Source: Armatimonadota bacterium (GTDB lineage: Bacteria > Sysuimicrobiota > Sysuimicrobiia > Sysuimicrobiales > Humicultoraceae). From it: DNA of 52,740 nt. The position numbers and the translations under genes are program-made. The DNA lies in NCBI GenBank assembly GCA_037446215.1, contig JBBIJB010000010.1, positions 1-52,740 on the forward strand. Direction: 5' to 3'. The notes below the pieces were generated by a model. That model did no database searches. It was not told the origin of the DNA and saw only the letters and a list, made by a program, of their open reading frames with translations. Positions 3,064 to 25,684 of this stretch are shown piece after piece (the first letter of the stretch is position 1; the number at the start of each line of letters is the position of its first letter).

Positions 3064-4416
3064 CTAGCCCGCAAACCTTCCCAGTATCAGCGCCATGTGC
3101 CGGATGCCCTGCCGGTAGTCCTCCAGCAGGATGTTCTCGTTCGGCCCGTGCGAGTTGCCCCTCGCGTGGCCGATCCCTGTCCCGACCGCCGGGGTCCCGA
3201 ACTGGCCGCACACCACGTGCATCGGCCCGGTCGCGGCCATCGTCGGCAGGACGATCGGCGGGATGCCGTGGATCTCCTCGGCCGTCTCCACCACCACGTC
3301 GACGATCGGCGCGTCGAACGGGGTCTTGGCGGGCTCCTCCATGCTCAAAGGCCGTACCTCTATGTCGCCGAAGCCCGTGTCGCGGAGGTGGCTACGCAGC
3401 TTGCCCAGGATATCCTCCGACCTCTGGTTGGCCACGAGCCTGAAGTCCACCTTCGCGACGGCGCGCCTCGGGAGGACGGTCTTCGAACCCTTCCCCGAGT
3501 AGCCGGAGGAGAGCCCGCAGATGGTGCAGGTGGGTTGGTAGAGGTAGGCCTTCATCAACTCGACCCCGCGTAGCCCTCTCAGGTACGAGGGGATGCCGAG
3601 ATCGCGCAGGATCGTCTCGTCGTCGCGCTGCGCCGCGATACGCTCGAGCTGACCTACCTCTGCCGGGCTCGGCTCCGCGACATCGTCGTAGAACCCGGGG
3701 ATCAGGACGCGCTCGTCCTGCCCCTTGAGCGTTGCCAGGGCCCAGACCAGCCGCCAGGCCGGGTTGGGGACTATCGCGCCCGACGCCGAGTGCAGGTCCC
3801 TGCTTGCGCACTTCGCCTCGAGCTCCACGTAGCAGATACCCTTGACGCCGAGGTAGATCGTGGGATTACCGTGGATGTCCTTCGCGCCCGACTCCCAGAT
3901 GCAGGCGTCGGCCCGCGCCAGGTCGGGTCTCTCGCGCAGCACCTCCTCCAGGTGCGGGCTGCCCACCTCCTCCTCGCCCTCTATCAGGAACTTGACGGTC
4001 GCCGGGAGCCGGCCCCGCACCCGGAGCCAGGCCTCCACCGCCGCGACCCGCGCCATGATGTTGCCCTTGGTGTCCTGGGCCCCACGGCAGTAGAGGCGGC
4101 CGTCGCGTATCTCCGCCCCGAACGGATCCGACTGCCACTCGTCCAGGGGATCCGGGGGTTGCACATCGTAATGGCCGTAGATCAGCAACGTGCGGTCGCT
4201 CTCCCCCTGGACATCCGCCGCCACCAGCGGCGGGCCCCCGCAGCCCGGCTCGATCCGAGCCGGTATGCCCTTGGAGCGCATCTGCGCCGCGAGCAGCTCC
4301 GCGCACTCCTCCAGGCCGACCTTCTGCGCCGAGATGGAGGGCTGCCGGCAGAGGCGCTGCAGGTCGCGTATGGACGCCTCCGCGTTCGACTCTATGTAGC
4401 GGAAGAGATCGTCCAT
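3064..4416 (-). CDS. M20-family metallopeptidase (dipeptidase / ArgE-DapE-like)
   Basis: The tracked 667-aa ORF (3064-5067) is over-extended. ATG at 4416 (MDDLFRYIES...) abuts the stop of the upstream gene. Motifs LLIYGHYDVQP, GRLYCRGAQDTKG and LIEGEEEVGS fit M20 peptidases. Confidence 0.85.
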   Translation of the reverse strand: MDDLFRYIESNAEASIRDLQRLCRQPSISAQKVGLEECAELLAAQMRSKGIPARIEPGCGGPPLVAADVQGESDRTLLIYGHYDVQPPDPLDEWQSDPFGAEIRDGRLYCRGAQDTKGNIMARVAAVEAWLRVRGRLPATVKFLIEGEEEVGSPHLEEVLRERPDLARADACIWESGAKDIHGNPTIYLGVKGICYVELEAKCASRDLHSASGAIVPNPAWRLVWALATLKGQDERVLIPGFYDDVAEPSPAEVGQLERIAAQRDDETILRDLGIPSYLRGLRGVELMKAYLYQPTCTICGLSSGYSGKGSKTVLPRRAVAKVDFRLVANQRSEDILGKLRSHLRDTGFGDIEVRPLSMEEPAKTPFDAPIVDVVVETAEEIHGIPPIVLPTMAATGPMHVVCGQFGTPAVGTGIGHARGNSHGPNENILLEDYRQGIRHMALILGRFAG

Positions 4417-13469: not shown

Positions 13470-14642
13470 GTGTCGTCGAAGGCGGGCGCTTTGGTCAGGG
13501 TCGTGCTGGTAGCGACCGTGGCGGTGACAGTGCTGCTGGGGGCGGCGCCTGCCCTGGCGGTGGAGACGCGCGCGGGCCAGGCAGTCCGAGTCGGCCCGGA
13601 CGAGGTCGTGAACGACGATCTCTACGTCGCCTCCAGCCGCACGACCGTGGAGGGCCGTGTGCGGGGCGACCTGATCTCGCTGGGCGGCAGCCTCCGGCTG
13701 CGCGGCAGCGTGGACGGCGACGCCCTCGTAGCCGCCGGGACCGCGGAGGTGTTGGGCGCGGTTGGGGCGAGCCTGCGGGTGATTGCGGGCACCCTCGTCG
13801 TCGAGGGGGCAGTCGGGAGGGATGCGACGGTTGCCGGCGGTACCGTGGAGTTCGAGAGGGGCTCTCGCATCGCCCGCGACGTCGCGGTCGCCGCCGGTAC
13901 GGTGTCCCTGAGGGGAGAGGTCGGGCGCAACGCGCACCTGGCCGGCGGGCGGACCGAGATTTCGGGCACCGTCGGGGGGAACGTGGTCGTGCGCGGGGGC
14001 GAGGTCGTCCTTCTTCCCACGGCGGTCGTGCGGGGCAGCCTCACCTACAGCAGCGACCGTCCCGTTACGATGTCCCCGGGCGCCACCGTAGTGGGAAGGG
14101 TCGTCGAGCGTCCCTACGCCGTGCCCAGGCCCTCGGCCGCGCAGGCGCTAAGGGGGGTTCGCGTAGTGCTCGGCATCCTCGACTTCTTCTGGCTGCTGGT
14201 CCTGGCCCTCGTGCTGGTCGCCGTGGTGCCCGGTCCCGCGCTGGCGAGCGCGGGGGCGCTCCGCGGCCGGCCCTGGGCCTCCCTGGTGATCGGCCTCGCG
14301 CTCGCCTTCCTGATCCCGGTCCTGACGATGATGCTCACACTGACCCTGGTCGGGATCCCGCTGGCGATAGTGGTCGTGCTCGGCGGCACGCTGGCCGTCT
14401 TCCTGGCGCACGTGGCCGCGGCGCTCGCGATCGGACAGCTCCTCTTCCCCAGCCTGCGCTCACGGTACTCGGAGGCGGCGATCGGAGCAGGGTTCATCGC
14501 GATCGCCACGAACCTGCCGGTCGTGGGCTACGCTCTGCGGATGCTCGTGCTCGCCTTCGGGCTGGGCGCCCTCGTGGTGGCGTGGTGGGGGAGGCGTACT
14601 CCTCCTGCGCCGGCCCCGACCGACCGCCCGATGGTGGCCTGA
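13470..14642 (+). CDS. Membrane protein: signal peptide, bactofilin-like Gly/Val beta-helical repeat ectodomain, C-terminal polytopic domain
   Basis: GTG start after GGGAGG. Signal peptide VVLVATVAVTVLLGAAPALA. About 190 aa of degenerate repeats (GRVRGDLISLGGSLRLRGSVDGDALVAAGTAEVLGAVGASLRVIAGTLVVEGAVGRDATVAGG...), followed by 4-5 predicted TM helices. Confidence 0.7.
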   Translation: MSSKAGALVRVVLVATVAVTVLLGAAPALAVETRAGQAVRVGPDEVVNDDLYVASSRTTVEGRVRGDLISLGGSLRLRGSVDGDALVAAGTAEVLGAVGASLRVIAGTLVVEGAVGRDATVAGGTVEFERGSRIARDVAVAAGTVSLRGEVGRNAHLAGGRTEISGTVGGNVVVRGGEVVLLPTAVVRGSLTYSSDRPVTMSPGATVVGRVVERPYAVPRPSAAQALRGVRVVLGILDFFWLLVLALVLVAVVPGPALASAGALRGRPWASLVIGLALAFLIPVLTMMLTLTLVGIPLAIVVVLGGTLAVFLAHVAAALAIGQLLFPSLRSRYSEAAIGAGFIAIATNLPVVGYALRMLVLAFGLGALVVAWWGRRTPPAPAPTDRPMVA

Positions 14643-16713: not shown

Positions 16714-16742
16714 TTGACACCGGCCCATCCCAGCGATACCCT
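16714..16742 (+). promoter_or_regulatory. Sigma-70-type promoter for the men operon: -35 TTGACA, 17-bp spacer, -10 TACCCT
   Basis: Perfect TTGACA at 16714-16719, exactly 17 nt, then TACCCT (TAnnnT) at 16737-16742. Predicted +1 is about 16749. Confidence 0.5.
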
Positions 16743-16748
16743 GCGACT

Positions 16749-16766
16749 AGACCGACGCGTCGGTCT
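16749..16766. promoter_or_regulatory. Perfect 18-bp palindrome AGACCGACG|CGTCGGTCT, candidate TetR operator
   Basis: Perfect inverted repeat starting at the predicted +1, 18 nt upstream of the TetR::MenF ATG. Size and dyad symmetry are typical of TetR-family operators. Confidence 0.55.
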
Positions 16767-16783: not shown

Positions 16784-18886
16784 ATGACCCGACGCAGCAG
16801 CCCTGAGACAGCCACCCGCGACCGCCTGCTCGAGGCGGCGCTGGAGGTCTTTGCGAGGCTCGGCTACCACGGCGCCACCGTCGCCGACATAGTCGCGGCG
16901 TCGGGCAGCTCCAAGGGCGCCTTCTACCACTACTTCCCGAGCAAGCAGGGGATCTTCCTCGAGCTCCTCCGGAGCCTCTCAGACATGGTCGAGGCGGGTG
17001 TCGAGGGCGCCATCGCGCAGGAGAGGGGGGGGCTCGCTAAGGTAGAGGCCGCCCTGGCGGTGGTGCTCGGGGCCGTCTCCTCGCAGCGAAGCCTGGCGAG
17101 GATCCTCCTGATCGAGGCGGCGGCGCTGGGGCCGGAGTTCGAGGAGGGCAGACTGGCAATCCACCGCAGGTTCGCGGCCCTGATCAAGCGTCACCTGGAT
17201 CGAGCCGTGGCCGAGGGCGCCATCCCGGCGCAGGACACCGAGACCGCGGCAACCGCATGGATCGGTGCCGTGAACGAGATCCTGACCCAGCGGCTCGCGG
17301 CCGGTGGAGAGCTGATGCCCCTGCTGCCGCCGGTGCGCGCCCTGCTCCTCCGCAGCATCGGGGCCGGAGCAAGGGGCGACGGCGACCCCGCCCTAGCGGC
17401 CGGCGCCCGGCTGAGAGAGCGGGCGCTGGAGGCCGCGGGCAGGGCACGGGGGTTGGGGCGGCCCGTGCTGGCGTGGGTGTGCCTGCCGGTGCCAGCGGCC
17501 GATCCGGTCTTCTTGTTCGAGCGGCTGCGCTCGGCGCTCGGCGAGGCGGCGCTATGGTATCAGCCGCGGGAGCCGTTCAGCCTGGTGGCGGGAGGCAGGG
17601 CGTGGTCACCGCAGGCGGCCGGCCCGCCGAGGTTCGAGCAGGCGAGCCTGGCGTGGCGGGCACTCGCGGAGGAGTCCGTGGGAGGAGCGCCGGAGGGCTG
17701 GGGCACCGGCCCGGTGCTCTTCGGCGGCTTCGCCTTCGCTCCCGACCTCGCCCCGGGCGAGTCGCCGGCGGCCGCAAGCTGGCGCCAGTTCGGCACGGCC
17801 TCCATGGTGCTGCCGGACATCGCGGTGGCCTGCGCCGGCGACTCGAGCCTCCTGACGCTCTCCGTGCTCGTGGATGAGCAGGGGCGCGCGATGCGCGGCG
17901 GCTTCGACCTGACCACCCCTTCCGGCGCGAACGCGTGGGTCAGGAGTTGCATGGACCTCGTGGGAGGAGCTGCCGCGGAGGATCCCCAGGGTCCCAGGAG
18001 GGACTCCCAGGGAGTCGGCAGGCGCCATCGGTCCCCTTTCGCCTGCGCGGTGGAGGAGTTGCCCACAGCCAGCGCCTGGATGGAGGCCGTGGCCTCGGCG
18101 GCCCGGGCCGTGGCAGACGGCGAGCTGGAGAAGGTCGTCCTGGCGCGCGCGCTGAGGGTCCAGGGAGCGATTCCGGCCGCGGCCGAGATGCTGGGCAGGC
18201 TGGCGGCGGTCCATCCCGGATGCACCCTCTACGCGGTGAGCAGGGGGGAGGCGTGTTTCCTCGGCGCCACGCCTGAGCGGCTCGTCCGTCTGCGCCGGGG
18301 CAGGGTGAGCGCCGACGCGCTGGCCGGAAGCGCCCCGAGGGGAAGCACCCCGGAGGAGGACCGCAGGCTTGGGGAGCTGCTGCTCTCCAACCCCAAGGAT
18401 CGGCTCGAGCATGCCCTGGTGGTGGAGGAGGTACGCCGCGCGCTGATGGGGAGCTGCGACTCCGTCTCCGTCGGCGGCGAGCCGGTTCTCCTCAGGACGG
18501 CAAACGTTCAGCACCTGCACACGCCGATCGCAGGGACGCTGCGTGGGAGCCTGACGGCAGTAGACCTGGCCGGTGCCCTACACCCGACCCCTGCCGTCGG
18601 CGGGGTGCCGGTCGCGGCCGCACTGGAGTGGATCGACCGCCACGAGTCGGTGCCGCGGGGATGGTATGCCGGGCCGCTCGGGTGGGTGGACCTGAACGGA
18701 GACGGCGAGTTCGCCGTCGCCCTGCGCTGCGCCCTGGCAGGGCCCGGCGAGGCGCTGCTCTACGCGGGCTGCGGGATAATGGCGGACTCCGAACCGGAGG
18801 ACGAGTACGAGGAGTCCGCCCTCAAGCTGCGGGCGATGCTGGCCGCGATCGGCCTCGCCGGTCAAGAGAGAACGGCAGGGAAGTGA
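16784..18886 (+). CDS. menF: TetR-family DNA-binding domain fused in frame to isochorismate synthase (MenF)
   Basis: Single 700-aa stop-free ORF. Residues 1 to about 205 are TetR ([47 protein letters not shown]). Residues from about 215 to 700 are the chorismate-utilising enzyme ([51 protein letters not shown]...[19 protein letters not shown]). Confidence 0.85.
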
Positions 18887-18927
18887 GATCCCCGGCGGCG
18901 CGCCGACGGGGTGAGGGGGCGGCGGTT

Positions 18928-20782
18928 GTGACGACGGCCGAGAACGCGATGTACGCCTACGTCGGTGCGCTGGTGGACGAGCTGGTGCGCTCCGGCGTGG
19001 GGGATCTCTGTCTCTGTCCCGGGTCGCGCTCGACCCCGGTGGCGATCGCCGCCGCGCGCCATCCGGGCCTCAGGGTGTGGACGCTGATCGATGAGCGCTG
19101 CGCCGGCTTCTTCGCGCTCGGCGCCGCCCGGGCGTCACGCCGCCCGGTCGCCGTGCTCTCGACCTCCGGCACCGCGGCAGCGAACTTCCTCCCCGCCGTG
19201 GTGGAAGCGCACCACGCGAGGGTCCCGCTGGTCGTGCTCACCGCGGACAGGCCGCACGAGCTTCGGGAGTGCGGGGCGCCGCAGACGATCGACCAGATAA
19301 GGCTCTTCGGCGGCCACGCGAAGTGGTTCGTGGACCTGGCACTCCCCGAGGCGACGGAGCCGGTGCTGCGCTACGCCCGGGCGGTCGCCTGCCAGGCGGC
19401 GGCGATCTCGGTCGAGGCGCCCGCCGGCCCGGTACACCTCAACGTGCCGATGCGAGAGCCGCTGGTGCCTGTGTTCGTGCCCGAACAGATCCCACCGGAA
19501 GGACTGCGCGCGCCGGATGCCTGGGACGGTCGGGGAGGCGGGCGGCCCTACTGGAGCTCGGGCGGCGCCCGGAAGGTGGCCGAAGGCCCTACCGTCGCGG
19601 CACTGGCCCAGCAGCTCTCCGGCGCGGACCGCTGCCTGATCGCCTGCGGGCCCGGCGACGACCCGGAGCTGCCCGAAGCCGTGTGCAGGCTGGCGGCGCT
19701 CCTAGGGATCCCCGTGCTGGCAGACCCCCTCTCGCAGGTACGCTGCGGCCCTCACGACCGCGGGGTTGTGATAGATGCCTACGACCCGCTCCTGCGGGTC
19801 GGCAGGGCGGCCAAGGCGCTGGCACCCGATCTCGTGATCCGCTTCGGTGCGATGCCCGCGTCGAGGCCCCTGGTGCAGTACCTGGCGACCCATGCCGCCA
19901 CGGTTCCCACGGTCGTGGTCGACGAGGGAGGCGGGTACCGCGATCCCTCCCGCCTGGCGTCGCAGTTCATCGGCGCATCGCCGGCGGAGCTGTGCAGGCA
20001 GGTGGCTGCCCGGCTCTCCGACTCCGACAGGGAGGGGCCGGCCAAGAGGCGCTCCGCGGGAGCGCCGCGCAGGTGGCTTCGCACGTGGCGGAGGCTCGGC
20101 GCGCTGGCCCGCAGGGCCGTCGACGACCGTCTGGCATCGCTCGACGAGATGTTCGAGGGCAAGGTCTTCGCCGAGCTCTCGCGGTTGCTGCCTGATCAGG
20201 CGGTCCTCTACGTGGGCAACAGCATGCCGGTGCGCGACCTGGACACCTTCTTCGCGAGCACTTCCGAGCGGATCCGCTTCATGGGCAACCGCGGCGCCAG
20301 CGGCATAGACGGGCTGACCTCCAGCGCCTTGGGTGTTGCCGCCATGGGGGCGGCCGGGGCCGGGCCGGCCCCGCCCGTGGTGCTGGTGCTCGGCGACCTC
20401 TCCTTCTACCACGACATGAACGGGCTGCTTGCCGCGAAGCTCCACGACCTCAGCGCGACCATCGTGCTGATCAACAACGACGGCGGCGGCATCTTCTCGT
20501 TCCTACCCCAGGCCGGCTATCCGGAGCACTTCGAGGCCCTGTTTGGGACACCGCACGGACTCGAGTTCGCAGCGGCGGCGAAGCTCTACGGGGCGAGGTT
20601 CGAGCGCGCCGCGTCTTGGGCCGAGTTCCGGGCCGGGATCGAGCGCGGCATTGCTGTCGATCGTCGAGGTGAGGACCGATCGGGGGCGAAACGTCGAACT
20701 CCACCACGAGATCTGGGGAGCCGTGGAGCGCGCCCTGGGCACCGAAGCGCCCCGGGCCGCGCGCGGAAAGGGCCGCGGGTAG
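18928..20782 (+). pseudogene. menD: SEPHCHC synthase (MenD), interrupted by an apparent 1-nt frameshift near 20640-20655
   Basis: GTG 8 nt after GAGGGGG. ThDP enzyme motifs [31 protein letters not shown] and INNDGGGIF. The conserved C-terminus [29 protein letters not shown] plus stop (20780-20782) lies in the +1 frame relative to the body. Confidence 0.8.
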
Positions 20783-20812
20783 GCGGCGCCGGGGAGGCGG
20801 GATCGGAGTCCG

Positions 20813-21631
20813 ATGGCGCGGGTAGAGGTCAACGGCGTGCACCTGAACGTCGAGAGCGCAGGGGAGGGGTCGCCGCTGGTCCTGCTGCACGGCTTCACGG
20901 GCAGCACCGCGACCTGGGCTCCGCACATCGACGAGTTCGCCCGCTCCCACCGGGTCATCGCGATCGACAGCCTCGGCCACGGCCTCTCCGACTCGCCGGA
21001 CGACCCTGCTCGGTACGGCATAGGGTTTGCGTCCGAGGACCTCATCGCCGTGCTCGACCTGCTTGGAGTCGGAAAGGCCGCGCTGCTCGGCTACTCGATG
21101 GGAGGCCGCGTGGCCCTCTCCGTCGCGATCGTCGCCCCGGAGCGGCTGTCGGCGCTGGTAGTCGAGAGCGCCTCACCGGGCCTGCCGGACGGGGAGGCTC
21201 GCCGGGCGCGGGCCGACAGCGACGCCCAGCTGGCGAGCGAGATAGAGCAGGAGGGCGTGGAGGCGTTCATCGCCAGGTGGGAGCGCCTGCCCCTCTTCTC
21301 CAGCCAGTCCGGCCTCTCGGCGGAGGCGAGGGCGACGCTGCGGGACCAGCGCCTCGGCAACAGCGCAAAGGGCCTGGCCGGCAGCCTGCGCGGCCTGGGC
21401 CAGGGAAGCCAGCCGCCGCTGCACGACCATCTCCCCACGGTGCAGGCGCCGACACTCTTCATCGCCGGGGAGCTCGACCCCGGGTACTGCCGGATGGGAC
21501 GAGAGGTCTGCGGCCTGATACCGCGCTCCAGGCTCGCCGTTGTGCCCGGTGCAGGGCACGCGGTGCACCTGGAGCAGCCGGAGTCGTTCCGCGGGCTCGT
21601 ACTCGAATTCCTCAGAGAGGTGAACCGTTGA
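20813..21631 (+). CDS. menH: Alpha/beta hydrolase, SHCHC synthase (MenH)-like
   Basis: [10 protein letters not shown], nucleophile elbow [10 protein letters not shown], and C-terminal [11 protein letters not shown]. Its position between menD and menB supports the call. The stop overlaps the menB ATG. Confidence 0.8.
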
Positions 21632-22449
21632 TGCCAATCAAGTGGAAGCAGGCGAAGAAGTACACCGACATCATCTACCAGCGCGCCGAGGGAATAGCCA
21701 AGATCACGATCAACCGGCCCGAGGTCCGAAACGCCTTCCGGCCCGAGACCGTGATCGAGCTGATCGATGCCTTCGCCCACGCCCGCGACGACGCGTCGAT
21801 AGGGGTGGTTCTCTTCACGGGGGCCGGGGACAAGGCGTTCTGCTCGGGCGGCGACCAGCGCGTCCGCGGCGGCGCCGGCTATGTCGGCAAGGACAGGATA
21901 CCGCGGCTGAACGTGCTGGACCTCCAGCGCCAGATCCGCACCCTGCCCAAGCCGGTGATCGCGGTGGTGGCCGGATACGCGATAGGAGGCGGCAACGTGC
22001 TCGCGACCGTCTGCGACCTCACGATCGCCGCCGACAACGCGGTGTTCGGCCAGACCGGCCCGAAGGTGGGCAGCTTCGACGCGGGCTACGGCTCCACGTA
22101 CCTGGCGCGGATCGTGGGCCACAAGAAGGCGCGCGAGATCTGGTATCTCTGCCGCCAGTACTCGGCCGCGGAGGCGCTGGAGATGGGGCTGGTCAACGCG
22201 GTCGTGCCGCTTGACCGCCTGGAGGAGGAGGCGGTCCGGTGGGCCAGGGAGCTCCTGGACAAGAGCCCGATGGCGCTGCGCCTGCTGAAGGCCGCGTTCA
22301 ACGCCGACACCGACGGGCTGGCCGGCTTGGTACAGCTGGGCGGCGACGCCACCCTGCTGTACTACCACACCGAGGAGGCGCAGGAAGGTCGCAACGCCTA
22401 CCTCCAGAAGCGAAAGCCCGACTTCAAGAAGTTCACCCGGTACCCGTAG
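21631..22449 (+). CDS. menB: 1,4-dihydroxy-2-naphthoyl-CoA synthase (MenB)
   Basis: Crotonase-fold protein with a highly conserved MenB sequence ([28 protein letters not shown]...[11 protein letters not shown]...[16 protein letters not shown]...[17 protein letters not shown]). Confidence 0.95.
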
Positions 22450-22454
22450 CCCCG

Positions 22455-23363
22455 ATGCCGGCTTCCCACAGCGTGTCGCGGCGGGCCGCCTGGCTGATGG
22501 CGGCGCGCATTCCCACGCTGCCCGCGGCGGTGGCACCCGTCCTGGTCGGGACGGCGGCGGCGGCCGGCGACGGAGTCTTCCTGCTCCTGCCGGCCCTGGC
22601 GGCGCTGGCGGCCGCAATCCTCATCCAGATCGGCACGAACCTTCACAACGATGCCGCCGACTTCGTGCGCGGGGCCGACACCGCGGAGAGGCGCGGGCCG
22701 CGGCGCGCCGCGCAGAGCGGGCTGCTGACGCCGCGCCAGGTGCTTGCCGGCGCCTACTCGTGCCTTGCGCTCGCAGCGGCATGCGGGCTCTATCTCGTCT
22801 TCCTGAGGGGCTGGCCGCTGCTCCTGGCCGGTGCCCTCTCCCTGGCCGCGGCGGTGGGGTACACTTCCGGGCCGTGGCCGCTCGGATACAAGGGTCTTGG
22901 CGAGCTCTTCGTATTCCTGTTCTTCGGGGTGGTCGCCGTGGTCGGGAGCGACTACGTGCAGACCGGGGCGGTGCGGGCCGTCGCCCTGGCGGCTTCCGTG
23001 CCGGTGGGAGCGCTGTCCACCGCCATACTCCTACTCAACAACCTGCGAGACATCGATACCGACAGGGTAGCGGGCAAGCGGACCCTGGCCGTGCGGCTCG
23101 GACGCGTGGCGACGCGCATGCAGTACCTCGGCTGCCTCGCCGCGGCCGTGGTCGCACCGGCGGCGATGCGCGCTGCCGGCCTGCTGGGGCCGCTGTTCTG
23201 GCTGCCGTGGATCACGCTGCCGATGATGGCCGGGCTTGCCCGCACGGTGCTGCGTGAGGACCAGGCGCCGGCGCTCATCCGGGCGCTGAAGCGGACCGCG
23301 CTCCTGCTGCTCGTCTACGGCGCACTCCTGGCGGCGGCCCTCCTGGCAGGGACGCACCGGTGA
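22455..23363 (+). CDS. menA: 1,4-dihydroxy-2-naphthoate polyprenyltransferase (MenA)
   Basis: UbiA-family polytopic protein. NLHNDAADFVRGAD and NNLRDIDTDRVAGKRTLAVRLG are the two Asp-rich prenyltransferase motifs. ATG at 22455 lies 5 nt after the menB stop. Confidence 0.9.
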   Translation: MPASHSVSRRAAWLMAARIPTLPAAVAPVLVGTAAAAGDGVFLLLPALAALAAAILIQIGTNLHNDAADFVRGADTAERRGPRRAAQSGLLTPRQVLAGAYSCLALAAACGLYLVFLRGWPLLLAGALSLAAAVGYTSGPWPLGYKGLGELFVFLFFGVVAVVGSDYVQTGAVRAVALAASVPVGALSTAILLLNNLRDIDTDRVAGKRTLAVRLGRVATRMQYLGCLAAAVVAPAAMRAAGLLGPLFWLPWITLPMMAGLARTVLREDQAPALIRALKRTALLLLVYGALLAAALLAGTHR

Positions 23364-25684
23364 AAGGCGGCCAGGAGCCCTCCACTCGCATCGCCGGGCT
23401 GCCGGAGTGGGTCCTGGGCGCGGGCGGGTCGCCCCAAGGGCCGGACTGGCTCTCGCAGCGCGCTGCCGCCAATCCCGACGGCCTCGCGCTTCTCTGTGGG
23501 GCGGACCGTCTCACCTTCGGCGACCTGGACCTCCTGGCAAGTGGTGCCGCCCGGGAGCTAGCATCGCTGGGCGCCGGCCCAGGATCAAGGGTCGCGCTCC
23601 TCCTGCGCAGGGGGATCGCATTCACCGCGACGATGCACGCGCTCACCCGACTGGGCGCCCTGATGGTGCCCATGAACGGCCGCCTTGCGGTGGGCGAGCT
23701 CGCCTGGCGGCTGCGTGACTCCCGCGCCGAGCTCCTCCTTCACGACGGGGCTTTCGCCGATGCGGCGGCGACCGCTGCCGCCGGCGTGGAGGGACTACGC
23801 CTCGCGCGGGCGCCGTCGGGATCGGGGAGCCCCTCGGGCGAGGGCCCTCCAGCGGCCGGGTTCGATCTCGAGGCGCCGCAGTGCCTGATCCATACCTCGG
23901 CAACGACCGGCAGGCCCAAGGGCGTGCTGCTGACCTACGGCAACCACTGGTGGAACGCGATCGGATCCGCGCTGAACCTGGGGGTCAGCAGGGAGGACCG
24001 GTGGCTCGCGCCGCTCCCTCTCTATCATGTCGGAGGGCTGGCGATCCTCTGGCGCAGCGTCATCTACGGCATCCCGGCGGTGGTTCACGAAGCCTTCGAT
24101 CCAGAAGCCGCGAACCGCGAGATCGACCAGGGCGGGATCACGATCGTCTCGGTGGTGAGCACGATGCTCCGGCGTATGCTGGATGCGCGAGGCCCTCGCC
24201 CCTATCCGGATACGCTGCGCTGCGTCTTGCTCGGAGGGGGGCCGGCGCCCAGGGGGCTGATCGAGGAGTGCCTCGAGCGTGGTGTCCCGGTGGCATGCAC
24301 CTACGGCCTGACCGAGGCGGCCTCGCAGGTCGCCACCCTGCCGCCCTCCGAGCTCCGAGCCAAGCTCGGGTCAGCCGGGCGCCCGCTGCCGCCGTTCGAG
24401 ATCCGCATCGAGGCGCCTGATGGGGGAGGGGATTGCGAGGCCGGATCGGCCGGCGAGATCCTCGTCCGCGGCCCGGCAGTGATGCTCGGATACGCGGGCC
24501 GCCCCGAGGCGAGCGCACAGGCCCTACGCGACGGATGGCTGCACACCGGGGACCTCGGCTACCTCGACGGCGACGGCTACCTGTACGTCCTCGACAGGCG
24601 CGAAGACCTGATAGTCTCCGGCGGCGAGAACGTCTACCCTGCCGAGGTCGAGGCGGTGCTGCTGGAGCACCCCCTCGTGGAGGAGGCGTGCGTCGTTGGG
24701 ATCTCGGACGACGAGTGGGGGCAGAGGGTGGTCGCTGCGGTCCGGCCCCGTCCCGGGCCGCGGCCGGACATCGAGGAGTTGAGGAGGTTCTGCGCACGGC
24801 GGATAGCGGGCTATAAGCTCCCGAGCCGGCTGATCCTGACCGGCGAGATCCCCAGGACGCCGTCCGGCAAGATCAAGAGGTCCGAGGTTCGGCGTCGCGT
24901 CGAGCGAGCGGGCGCGCAAGGGTCGTCGGGTGCCCCCACGGCCGAGCACCTCCTGCCCGGCGGTCTCGTGCCGGAGAGGCGGAGTTGGGTACGCGAGGCG
25001 TTCCACAGCATATCCGGAACCTACGACCTGCTGAACCACCTGCTGAGCGGGGGCATGCACGTCCTCTGGAAGGCCGCCGCAGTCCGCGAGGCCGGCCTCA
25101 GGCCGGGCGGGGTCGGGCTGGACGTCTGCTGCGGGACCGCCGACCTCCTGATCCCGATGGCCCGCGCCGCCGGACCGGGCGGCCGGGCGCTGGGCGTGGA
25201 CTTCGCAGCGGGCATGCTCGAGGTGGCCGGGCGGCGGGTCGGTGAAGCGAGGCGCCGTACGCCGGGCCTTGCCGCCGTGGGGCTTGCCTGCGGAGACGCC
25301 GAGTCGCTGCCGGTCTGCGACGGCTCGGTCGATGCTGTGACCTTCGCCTTCGGGCTGCGCAACGTGGCCAGGCCCGAGACCGCGCTGCGCGAGGCGTTCC
25401 GGGTCCTGAGGCCGGGCGGCCGCCTGGTCGTTCTCGAGTTCGGCCACCCCGGCTCCAGGGTGATCCGCGCCGCGTACGACTTCTACTCGCAGGCCATCGT
25501 CCCGCGCCTAGGTGGCCTGATCTCGGGCCGTCGCGACGTCTACCGGTACCTCCACGACTCGATCCGCAGGTGGCCGGATGCGGCGGCGCTCGCCCGGTCG
25601 ATCGGCGAGGCCGGGTTCGCGACGGTCCGCTACAGGCCGATCTTCGGCGGGATCGCCGTCCTTCACGTGGCCGAGAAGGCCTAG
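23360..25684 (+). CDS. menE: o-Succinylbenzoate-CoA ligase (MenE) fused in frame to demethylmenaquinone methyltransferase (MenG/UbiE)
   Basis: Single 774-aa ORF; its GTG overlaps the menA stop (GTGA). Adenylation motifs IHTSATTGRPKGV, YGLTEA, TGDLGYLDGDGYLY and PSGKIKR run to about aa 515. A roughly 25-aa linker follows. The UbiE/MenG domain then shows VREAFHSISGTYDLLNHLLSGGMHVLWK, LDVCCGTADL, FGLRNV and LRPGGRLVVLEF. Confidence 0.85.
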   Translation: MKGGQEPSTRIAGLPEWVLGAGGSPQGPDWLSQRAAANPDGLALLCGADRLTFGDLDLLASGAARELASLGAGPGSRVALLLRRGIAFTATMHALTRLGALMVPMNGRLAVGELAWRLRDSRAELLLHDGAFADAAATAAAGVEGLRLARAPSGSGSPSGEGPPAAGFDLEAPQCLIHTSATTGRPKGVLLTYGNHWWNAIGSALNLGVSREDRWLAPLPLYHVGGLAILWRSVIYGIPAVVHEAFDPEAANREIDQGGITIVSVVSTMLRRMLDARGPRPYPDTLRCVLLGGGPAPRGLIEECLERGVPVACTYGLTEAASQVATLPPSELRAKLGSAGRPLPPFEIRIEAPDGGGDCEAGSAGEILVRGPAVMLGYAGRPEASAQALRDGWLHTGDLGYLDGDGYLYVLDRREDLIVSGGENVYPAEVEAVLLEHPLVEEACVVGISDDEWGQRVVAAVRPRPGPRPDIEELRRFCARRIAGYKLPSRLILTGEIPRTPSGKIKRSEVRRRVERAGAQGSSGAPTAEHLLPGGLVPERRSWVREAFHSISGTYDLLNHLLSGGMHVLWKAAAVREAGLRPGGVGLDVCCGTADLLIPMARAAGPGGRALGVDFAAGMLEVAGRRVGEARRRTPGLAAVGLACGDAESLPVCDGSVDAVTFAFGLRNVARPETALREAFRVLRPGGRLVVLEFGHPGSRVIRAAYDFYSQAIVPRLGGLISGRRDVYRYLHDSIRRWPDAAALARSIGEAGFATVRYRPIFGGIAVLHVAEKA

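Follow-up and report, generated by a model that had tools for sequence, protein, structure and literature searches.

The 52.7-kb stretch of DNA analysed here (69.5% G+C; hereafter the window), from contig JBBIJB010000010.1 of an Armatimonadota bacterium, contains a gene whose predicted product starts as a TetR-family regulator and ends as MenF, the isochorismate synthase of menaquinone biosynthesis. The locus raises the question of whether the two halves form one protein and what their joining means for the transcriptional control of menaquinone (vitamin K2) biosynthesis, which to our knowledge is poorly understood beyond a few model organisms. The answer that we consider probable is a modular fusion of a dedicated menaquinone TetR repressor with MenF, in which both modules are functional and the operon is auto-repressed.

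The gene is a single ATG-started open reading frame (ORF) of 700 amino acids (16784–18886, forward strand), as had been reported in the first-pass annotation of the sequence. In one frame, the protein matches the Pfam families TetR_N (aa 15–61), TetR_C_24 (aa 84–166), and Chorismate_bind (aa 430–681). The peptides quoted in that annotation were located in the protein: the 31-letter TetR motif at aa 31–58, the 14-letter end of the TetR part at aa 182–195, and ARGDGDP at aa 196–202; the MenF motifs are present as well. The AlphaFold2 model of the whole protein, with a mean predicted local distance difference test (pLDDT) score of 84.6 and a predicted template modelling (pTM) score of 0.69, has two confident domains linked by a stretch of low pLDDT.

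The absence of a stop codon between the modules is weak evidence by itself, because long stop-free frames arise cheaply at this G+C content, an example being the mechanical 1273-aa ORF at 18628–22449. The fusion was therefore established by comparative evidence. A spurious insertion or deletion (indel) in the sequencing or assembly could have removed the tetR stop codon from what are in reality two genes, and the high G+C content, an 11-nt deletion in menD of the window relative to a sister assembly, and the dominance of the two-gene form among relatives would fit such an error. However, the junction DNA has the same length, with point differences only, in four independent assemblies: the window, GCA_037444465.1, GCA_964567635.1, and the Logan raw-read assembly SRR11582139, which is derived from a different run. 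The 90%-identity cluster of the window protein contains three 700-aa sequences from three different NCBI contigs, which are 99% identical and differ by substitutions only; the Logan assembly encodes one of them. The ortholog L001, 75% identical, is fused at the same place. A word-indexed search retrieved approximately 10 divergent proteins (38–42% identity) combining TetR_N, TetR_C, and Chorismate_bind domains, mostly from Chloroflexota metagenome-assembled genomes (MAGs), and many of the divergent fused orthologs come from Illumina-based MAGs. The source-named fused proteins among these public records are labelled merely "isochorismate synthase". A HMMER scan of 1.84 billion cluster representatives (50% identity) gave 5,129 MenF-like matches at E ≤ 1e-30, among which fused forms are rare: only about nine of the top-ranked matches are of fusion length (at least nine clusters), and seven of these were confirmed by Pfam. 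The co-occurrence of TetR_N and Chorismate_bind, one of the checks that had been proposed, is thus found in both searches.

The coding properties of the junction agree with these comparisons. The G+C content at third codon positions (GC3) is 0.87–0.90 through the junction, as in the remaining ORF. Between the window and L001, the ratio of non-synonymous to synonymous substitution rates (dN/dS) amounts to 0.088 in the TetR module (DNA-binding domain, 0.075; C-terminal domain, 0.089), 0.165 in the MenF catalytic domain, and 0.85 in the linker region, aa 196–235, a pattern expected for a translated linker between functional modules. Because both proteins inherited the fusion, the low ratios indicate that both modules have been kept under selection since it occurred and that the TetR part is not a relic. 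An artefact is essentially refuted, which also disposes of the earlier concern about an indel at the tetR stop, and the comparison of sequences confirms that the ORF is a genuine in-frame joining of two normally adjacent genes.

The TetR module begins with a helix-turn-helix (HTH) domain, which matches TetR_N (PF00440) over profile positions 1–47 of 47 (E = 2.6e-16; score 59.6 bits, cut-off 24), and continues with an all-helical C-terminal ligand-binding and dimerization domain, recognized by TetR_C_24 with 29.1 bits against a cut-off of 26.4. Nine helices span aa 7–191 in the AlphaFold2 model. The complete TetR protein previously assigned to residues 1 to about 205 is present, and the module can be delimited to aa 1–195. 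Among solved structures of TetR-family regulators, FadR/YsiA and MbdR come closest to it, with E-values of 6e-26 to 2e-20 for matches over the whole approximately 190 residues. Residues S43, K44, G45, Y48, F51, P52, and K54 of the HTH domain are invariant in the subfamily alignment. FadR of Bacillus halodurans reads DNA via Gly42 and Tyr45 (PMC5397183), the counterparts of which are G45 and Y48 of the window protein. The arginine that anchors the ligand of FadR (Arg117 in B. halodurans, Arg116 in Bacillus subtilis) is not matched: in the profile alignment to 5gp9 it aligns to position 120, which is glutamate in the window protein and variable in the family, with the caveat that a conserved arginine lies two to three residues away and the alignment may be shifted. 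The inverted ATGA(A/G)T repeats of the FadR box and the neighbouring fatty-acid degradation genes are not found; the operator and the neighbours differ. The TetR module is best assigned to a subfamily related to FadR, and is not FadR itself. By analogy with the family, its DNA binding may be switched by a small-molecule ligand.

The MenF module, which had been recognized as a full enzyme following a short linker, matches Chorismate_bind (PF00425) with an E-value of 1.7e-74 and the NCBIfam model of isochorismate synthase, TIGR00543, with 309 bits against a cut-off of 224.75; its score with the salicylate synthase model TIGR03494, 118 bits, is below the cut-off of 325. Residues K450, E498, E542, E674, and E677, counted along an alignment to EntC (5jxz), correspond to EntC K147, E197, E241, E373, and E376. 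None of them varies in an alignment of 17 sequences, which includes fused and stand-alone proteins. We take the general-base lysine and the general-acid glutamate to be those represented by K147 and E197 in EntC and K190 and E240 in MenF, and the others to be Mg2+-binding glutamates. The best Foldseek matches are the Escherichia coli MenF structures 3bzn, 2eua, and 3bzm (E about 1e-31, target TM scores 0.82–0.84), followed by DhbC, ICS1, and EntC. The fold is modelled confidently apart from a lineage-specific insert or loop at aa ~396–418, which has low confidence, and opens with a helix (aa 202–224, pLDDT 85–96). The enzyme is complete, because stand-alone MenFs have the same N-terminal helix. 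From the intact catalytic residues and the modelled fold, the module is predicted to convert chorismate to isochorismate. Another type of isochorismate synthase fusion was observed in protein P0134 (574 aa), in which a type II chorismate mutase domain (CM_2, aa 13–90) precedes Chorismate_bind.

The single ORF could still give rise to separate TetR and MenF proteins, by internal initiation or by proteolysis of the linker. A GTG at 17465 (codon V228), which is in frame and follows the G-rich stretch GGGGGTTGGGG, had been suggested as the start of a stand-alone MenF; the linker is flexible, modelled with low confidence, and potentially accessible to proteases; and in the ancestral gene pair the stop codon overlapped with the start codon. 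However, the GTG encodes the family-conserved valine of the motif RPVLAW, which explains its conservation at the protein level, and initiation there would cut away the helix aa 202–224 present in all stand-alone MenFs. The nearby TTG at 17453 is not conserved, being CTG in L001. No conserved Met or Val is found at the MenF boundary in the alignment of the other fused orthologs, and no internal promoter was called in a scan of positions 17200–17600. Moreover, internal initiation would leave the TetR part still fused, because there is no stop codon after it. Transcription or translation of a stand-alone MenF from within the ORF is thus unsupported, and the production of two proteins from this ORF is improbable. 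The probable modular repressor-enzyme fusion would be expressed as one polypeptide.

The gene had been described as lying behind a palindromic operator, and the palindrome is indeed a perfect 18-mer. It lies 7 nt 3' of a −10-like hexamer and 17 nt 5' of the fusion ATG; a site just behind the −10 element is a classical position for a repressor. The same placement behind a −10-like hexamer is repeated in L001–L004. The palindrome is the only perfect copy in the window. Further copies in the window are limited to two sites with two mismatches each (6949 and 31242), which are at the level of chance: three matches including the perfect one were found against 0.95 expected, and three or more occurred in 12 of 100 shuffles. 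The motif recurs before orthologous tetR genes. In the 84 related loci (656 kb) that were compared after a scan of one genome per GTDB species with the TetR-module alignment as query, there are 25 perfect sites of the 16-bp core, 20 of which lie within −150 to +20 of the tetR start. A tetR-proximal site with at least 13 of 14 matching bases occurs in 41 loci, against 0.13 expected. The palindrome is very probably the predicted operator of the TetR module itself. The hexamers TTGACA and TACCCT, separated by 17 nt, are tentatively proposed as the promoter of the fusion gene. This element is identical in L001, and similar ones (TTGACC-17-TACGGT, TATACT, and TATCAT) are positioned just 5' of the operator in L003, L002, and L004.

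The conserved operator bears on the possibility that the TetR half is a relic, the DNA-binding function of which has decayed so that it serves only as a dimerization or solubility appendage of MenF. Nothing speaks for this directly, and fusions can precede the loss of one function. Nevertheless, the HTH and C-terminal domains have evolved under stricter constraint than MenF since the split of the window and L001, TetR_N is matched over its whole profile, the predicted DNA-contacting residues G45 and Y48 are invariant, and a perfect operator is kept upstream. Decay of the TetR half is very improbable, and the reading with two functional modules is retained.

The genes that accompany the TetR subfamily point to its biological role. 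Among the 84 loci, 43 contain classical men genes, 13 contain futalosine-pathway genes, nine have only UbiA or UbiE genes, and two only an NMT1-like gene, the remaining 17 having none within reach; the subfamily therefore lies beside menaquinone genes (men, mqn, ubiA, ubiE) in at least 65 loci. In loci lacking menF, tetR is followed by futalosine genes (VitK2_biosynth MqnA/D-type in L017, MqnC/E-type radical-SAM in L048), by UbiA prenyltransferase genes (L011, L052, and L057), or, in several Dehalococcoidia, by menB-menA with a divergent ubiE. The five perfect core sites away from tetR, in loci of the Rokubacteria/Methylomirabilota type, are placed directly before menaquinone genes. Four of them (L010:112, L013:144, L014:108, and L035:169) are located approximately 55 nt 5' of mqnC/E-mqnA/D, with tetR approximately 3.8 kb downstream; the fifth (L056:3129) lies in the promoter region between divergent menF and ubiE, not beside tetR. 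These sites suggest that the regulon extends to the futalosine pathway, and the TetR protein appears to be a regulator of menaquinone biosynthesis independent of the biosynthetic route. Since the regulator also serves futalosine loci without MenF, the regulatory mechanism would not depend on MenF, and the regulatory logic most likely lies in the TetR module. In Armatimonadota and Anaerolineales, tetR is in some loci followed by an NMT1/THI5-like gene with a periplasmic-binding-protein fold (L007:4655, L008:3129-4544, L009:2684-3649, and L012:4612-5562), and in these loci a UbiA gene is sometimes found a few kb downstream.

The similarity to FadR and MbdR hinted that the effector might be a CoA thioester of the men pathway, o-succinylbenzoyl-CoA (OSB-CoA) or 1,4-dihydroxy-2-naphthoyl-CoA (DHNA-CoA). 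This candidate was downgraded because the arginine anchor is not conserved and the futalosine operons lack such intermediates. Since the same regulator-operator pair is also found at futalosine and prenyltransferase operons, an effector common to both routes, such as chorismate, a form of menaquinone or demethylmenaquinone, or the polyprenyl diphosphate that donates the side chain, is speculatively favoured over a men-specific intermediate.

The fusion can be traced to a junction between neighbouring genes. The closest relative of the window TetR is that of L005 (Armatimonadota, 73% identity), where the two genes are not fused and overlap by 14 nt (end of tetR at 3708, ATG of menF at 3695). 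Relative to L005, the window and L001 lack approximately 21 nt at exactly this junction. The alignment shows that a deletion of this size removed the tetR stop codon and brought the two frames together, and the ancestral arrangement is that of two genes, with menF directly behind tetR. When the 84 loci are sorted by arrangement, five are fused, 33, in as many GTDB species genomes, have tetR directly followed by menF on the same strand, one has a divergent menF, and 45 are without menF in the fetched DNA. It had been proposed that orthologs always encoding separate proteins would speak against the fusion; this is nearly but not entirely the case, as separate genes prevail and the fusion is an exception that recurs. 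All four fused orthologs with fetched contigs head men operons. In the neighbour-joining tree calculated from the TetR modules, fused and unfused forms are intermingled, the fused ones being polyphyletic; the window and L001 are placed next to L005, and several separate Chloroflexota fused lineages have unfused nearest neighbours. The fused orthologs have linkers of about 10 to about 60 aa, and such differences in length fit independent junctions. A further joint gene call was noticed in L003, where a 634-aa gene (L003:12795-14699) has both ECH (MenB) and MR_MLE (MenC) domains, and menD and menE of the contig look fragmented. The joint MenB/MenC call is probably long-read indel noise, which lowers the trust in the TetR::MenF fusion of L003.

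We propose that a small deletion at the overlapping stop/start junction welded the repressor to its first target enzyme. A TetR dimer would bind the core palindrome, situated 3' of the −10 region and ahead of the start codon, and thereby repress its own men operon, a small-molecule effector in the pocket of the TetR C-terminal domain would relieve the repression, as is usual in the family, and the MenF part would make isochorismate. Through the tether, two proteins that were already encoded on one transcript, and the translation of which may have been coupled, would be linked covalently at a ratio of 1:1, and the dosage of the repressor would equal that of MenF. The fusion would be dispensable for the regulatory mechanism, and the same regulator-operator pair would control futalosine-pathway and prenyltransferase operons elsewhere. 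The fusion is probably near-neutral, either tolerated or mildly useful, which would explain its recurrence. The self-regulating enzyme-repressor of menaquinone synthesis that had been proposed in the first-pass annotation is therefore retained in part: autoregulation through the operator is a well-founded expectation from the comparison of loci, whereas the fusion as the source of the regulation is at odds with 33 unfused against five fused loci.

A more intimate role of the tether can be envisaged, in which MenF acts as a trigger enzyme: its catalytic or substrate-bound state, set by occupancy with chorismate or isochorismate, would allosterically gate DNA binding by TetR and thereby sense flux, as in PutA, BirA, or NadR. 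A DNA-binding module and the first enzyme of the pathway share one chain that apparently regulates its own operon, only about 6–10 residues connect the two in the window, and the fusion arose more than once and has been held by purifying selection, which could reflect an advantage. However, the same TetR and operator function without a covalent link in most relatives and are present in futalosine operons without MenF. The TetR module retains a complete ligand-binding domain of its own, the linker is poorly conserved and evolves almost neutrally, unlike an expected element of allosteric coupling, and the model contains no confident rigid link between the modules (pLDDT below 50 at aa 196–199). 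We consider this mechanism unlikely, and the suggestion that substrate occupancy of MenF modulates DNA binding is not supported. The narrower proposal that fused lineages exploit the tether, with occupancy of MenF by substrate or product, or MenF-mediated oligomerization, tuning the binding to the operator, is equally doubtful. If it were true, the protein would be a flux-sensing, enzyme-gated TetR repressor, for which the literature searches gave no precedent, atop a previously unrecognized, phylum-spanning menaquinone regulon.

Several points weigh against the probable reading of a modular fusion with an auto-repressed operon. A sigma-70 scan upstream of the fusion gene called no promoter, and the −10 hexamer agrees at only three of six positions. 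In 17 of the 84 loci, no menaquinone gene is within the fetched DNA. TetR logic, in which ligand binding leads to derepression, fits poorly with the control of a biosynthetic operon by its end product, which makes the predicted direction of regulation uncertain. The near-neutrality of the fusion is argued from the unfused majority, and a selective benefit would explain the recurrence equally well. The estimate of how many fusions arose independently, at least two and probably four or more, is approximate, because the tree was calculated without bootstrap. The fused examples L003, L004, and L071 come from long-read or low-coverage assemblies with possible indels. The window itself is not free of errors or mutations: relative to the sister assembly L087 (GCA_037444465.1), which encodes an intact 621-aa MenD, it lacks 11 nt (CCAATAGCGGC) at 20653/20654, at the 3' end of menD. 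The deletion, which is either a strain-specific frameshift or an assembly error, puts the last approximately 45 residues of MenD into the +1 frame and explains why the stop-free 1273-aa frame runs into MenB.

The coordinates of the fusion gene, its control region, and the downstream genes are listed in Table 1.

Table 1. Features of the fusion gene and the men operon in the window (positions counted from the first base of the window)
Feature	Position	Strand	Basis or remark
Tentative promoter, TTGACA (16714-16719), 17-nt spacer, TACCCT (16737-16742)	16714..16742	+	Read from sequence
Predicted operator, perfect 18-bp palindrome AGACCGACGCGTCGGTCT	16749..16766	.	Family core GACCGAC-NN-GTCGGTC at 16750-16765
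TetR::MenF fusion gene, 700 aa + stop	16784..18886	+	ORF listing, Pfam, NCBIfam; same junction length in four independent assemblies
TetR module, aa 1-195: HTH (TetR_N aa 15-61, nt 16826-16966) and helical ligand/dimerization domain	16784..17368	+	Pfam, AlphaFold2
Linker, aa 196-201 (ARGDGD)	17369..17386	+	Sole low-confidence stretch between modules
MenF isochorismate synthase module, aa 202-700	17387..18883	+	Chorismate_bind aa 430-681 = nt 18071-18826; K450 18131-18133; E498 18275-18277
Rest of operon	18928..25684	+	Pfam; gene calls in sister assembly L087
menD	from 18928	+	Pfam; L087 gene calls
menH	20813-21631	+	Pfam; L087 gene calls
menB	ends 22449	+	Pfam; L087 gene calls
menA (UbiA-type)	ends 23363	+	Pfam; L087 gene calls
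menE::ubiE/menG fusion	23360-25684	+	Pfam; 774 aa

The gene order menF-D-H-B-A-E/G, with the fusion gene in first position, had been recognized from the sequence, and Pfam confirmed MenD, MenH, MenB, MenA (UbiA), and MenE::UbiE. A menaquinone-specific context of menD, menH, menB, menA, and menE is present in the window and in orthologous loci. The last gene is a second in-frame fusion of the operon, in which a MenE-type AMP-binding domain (aa 32–504) is followed by a UbiE/MenG methyltransferase (aa 541–773), which suggests a tendency of the lineage towards fusion of neighbouring men genes. No gene for the o-succinylbenzoate synthase MenC (MR_MLE) is found in the men operon of the window, and one is present in the Chloroflexota fused-type operons L002 and L004. 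On the other side of the fusion gene, a divergent gene (15455-16630/16720, reverse strand; 391–421 aa depending on the start codon), which has no Pfam match, borders on the same intergenic region, in which the operator lies. This gene and a DUF8173 gene (13470-14642, forward strand) are syntenic with L001, L085, and L087.

Full-text literature searches yielded neither a described TetR::MenF fusion, in agreement with the earlier statement that none was known, nor a TetR protein reported to control men or mqn operons. With its conserved operator, the family seems to represent a regulator of menaquinone synthesis that has not been described so far. Like a natural "Rosetta stone", the fusion points to a regulator-target pair, and its interest lies mostly in the conserved pair of regulator and operator. 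It led to a conserved TetR subfamily whose operator, 16 bp long and sharply defined, is placed before menaquinone genes of either route in Chloroflexota, Armatimonadota, Rokubacteria/Methylomirabilota, and other phyla. The pair gives a testable regulon and a route to the effector, which could report quinone demand, and may supply a compact regulator-operator part for engineering. The locus also provides a clean, datable case of a transcription factor welded to its target enzyme via a small deletion at an overlapping stop/start junction.

The system shares features with four kinds of known proteins. The best matches among solved structures are members of the FadR/YsiA-MbdR group (B. halodurans FadR, 5gp9 and 5gpc; B. 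subtilis FadR, 1vi0 and 3whb; Azoarcus MbdR, 4uds), which have the same nine-helix architecture and the same DNA-contacting glycine and tyrosine in helix alpha-3. They also autoregulate from a palindrome at their own promoter and are co-oriented with the genes that they control, as is predicted for the window. FadR/YsiA of Bacillus is an acyl-CoA sensor and MbdR a sensor of 3-methylbenzoyl-CoA, whereas the window TetR is positioned beside menaquinone genes and not beside those of fatty-acid or aromatic degradation. Its operator, GACCGAC-NN-GTCGGTC, differs from the ATGA(A/G)T repeat of FadR, the ligand-anchoring Arg117 of FadR aligns to the non-conserved E120, and, unlike the members of the group, the regulator carries a C-terminal enzyme of approximately 500 aa. 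Stand-alone MenF, EntC, and DhbC resemble this enzyme in fold (Foldseek TM scores 0.82–0.89), catalytic lysine and glutamate, metal-binding glutamates, N-terminal helix, and first position in the men operon; the window protein is distinguished from them by the N-terminal TetR extension of approximately 200 aa and the insert at aa ~396–418.

PutA, BirA, and NadR similarly combine in one chain a DNA-binding domain and an enzyme of the pathway that they apparently regulate, although control of its own pathway by the window protein is deduced from the operator. In PutA, BirA, and NadR, the catalytic or ligand state of the enzyme is the signal. The DNA-binding module of the window protein, in contrast, has its own ligand domain and mostly unfused orthologs, and its fold is that of TetR rather than the ribbon-helix-helix (RHH), winged-HTH, or HTH folds of those proteins. 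The similarity to Rosetta-stone fusions is in the coexistence of fused and split orthologs, the junction at a former stop/start overlap, the variable and weakly constrained linker, and the presence of a second fusion, MenE::UbiE, in the same operon. Unlike in the usual Rosetta-stone fusions, the partners are a transcription factor and its target enzyme and not two enzymes or subunits, and the copy number of the regulator is tied to that of the enzyme. The window protein can be regarded as a one-component repressor of the TetR type that has entered into a Rosetta-stone fusion.

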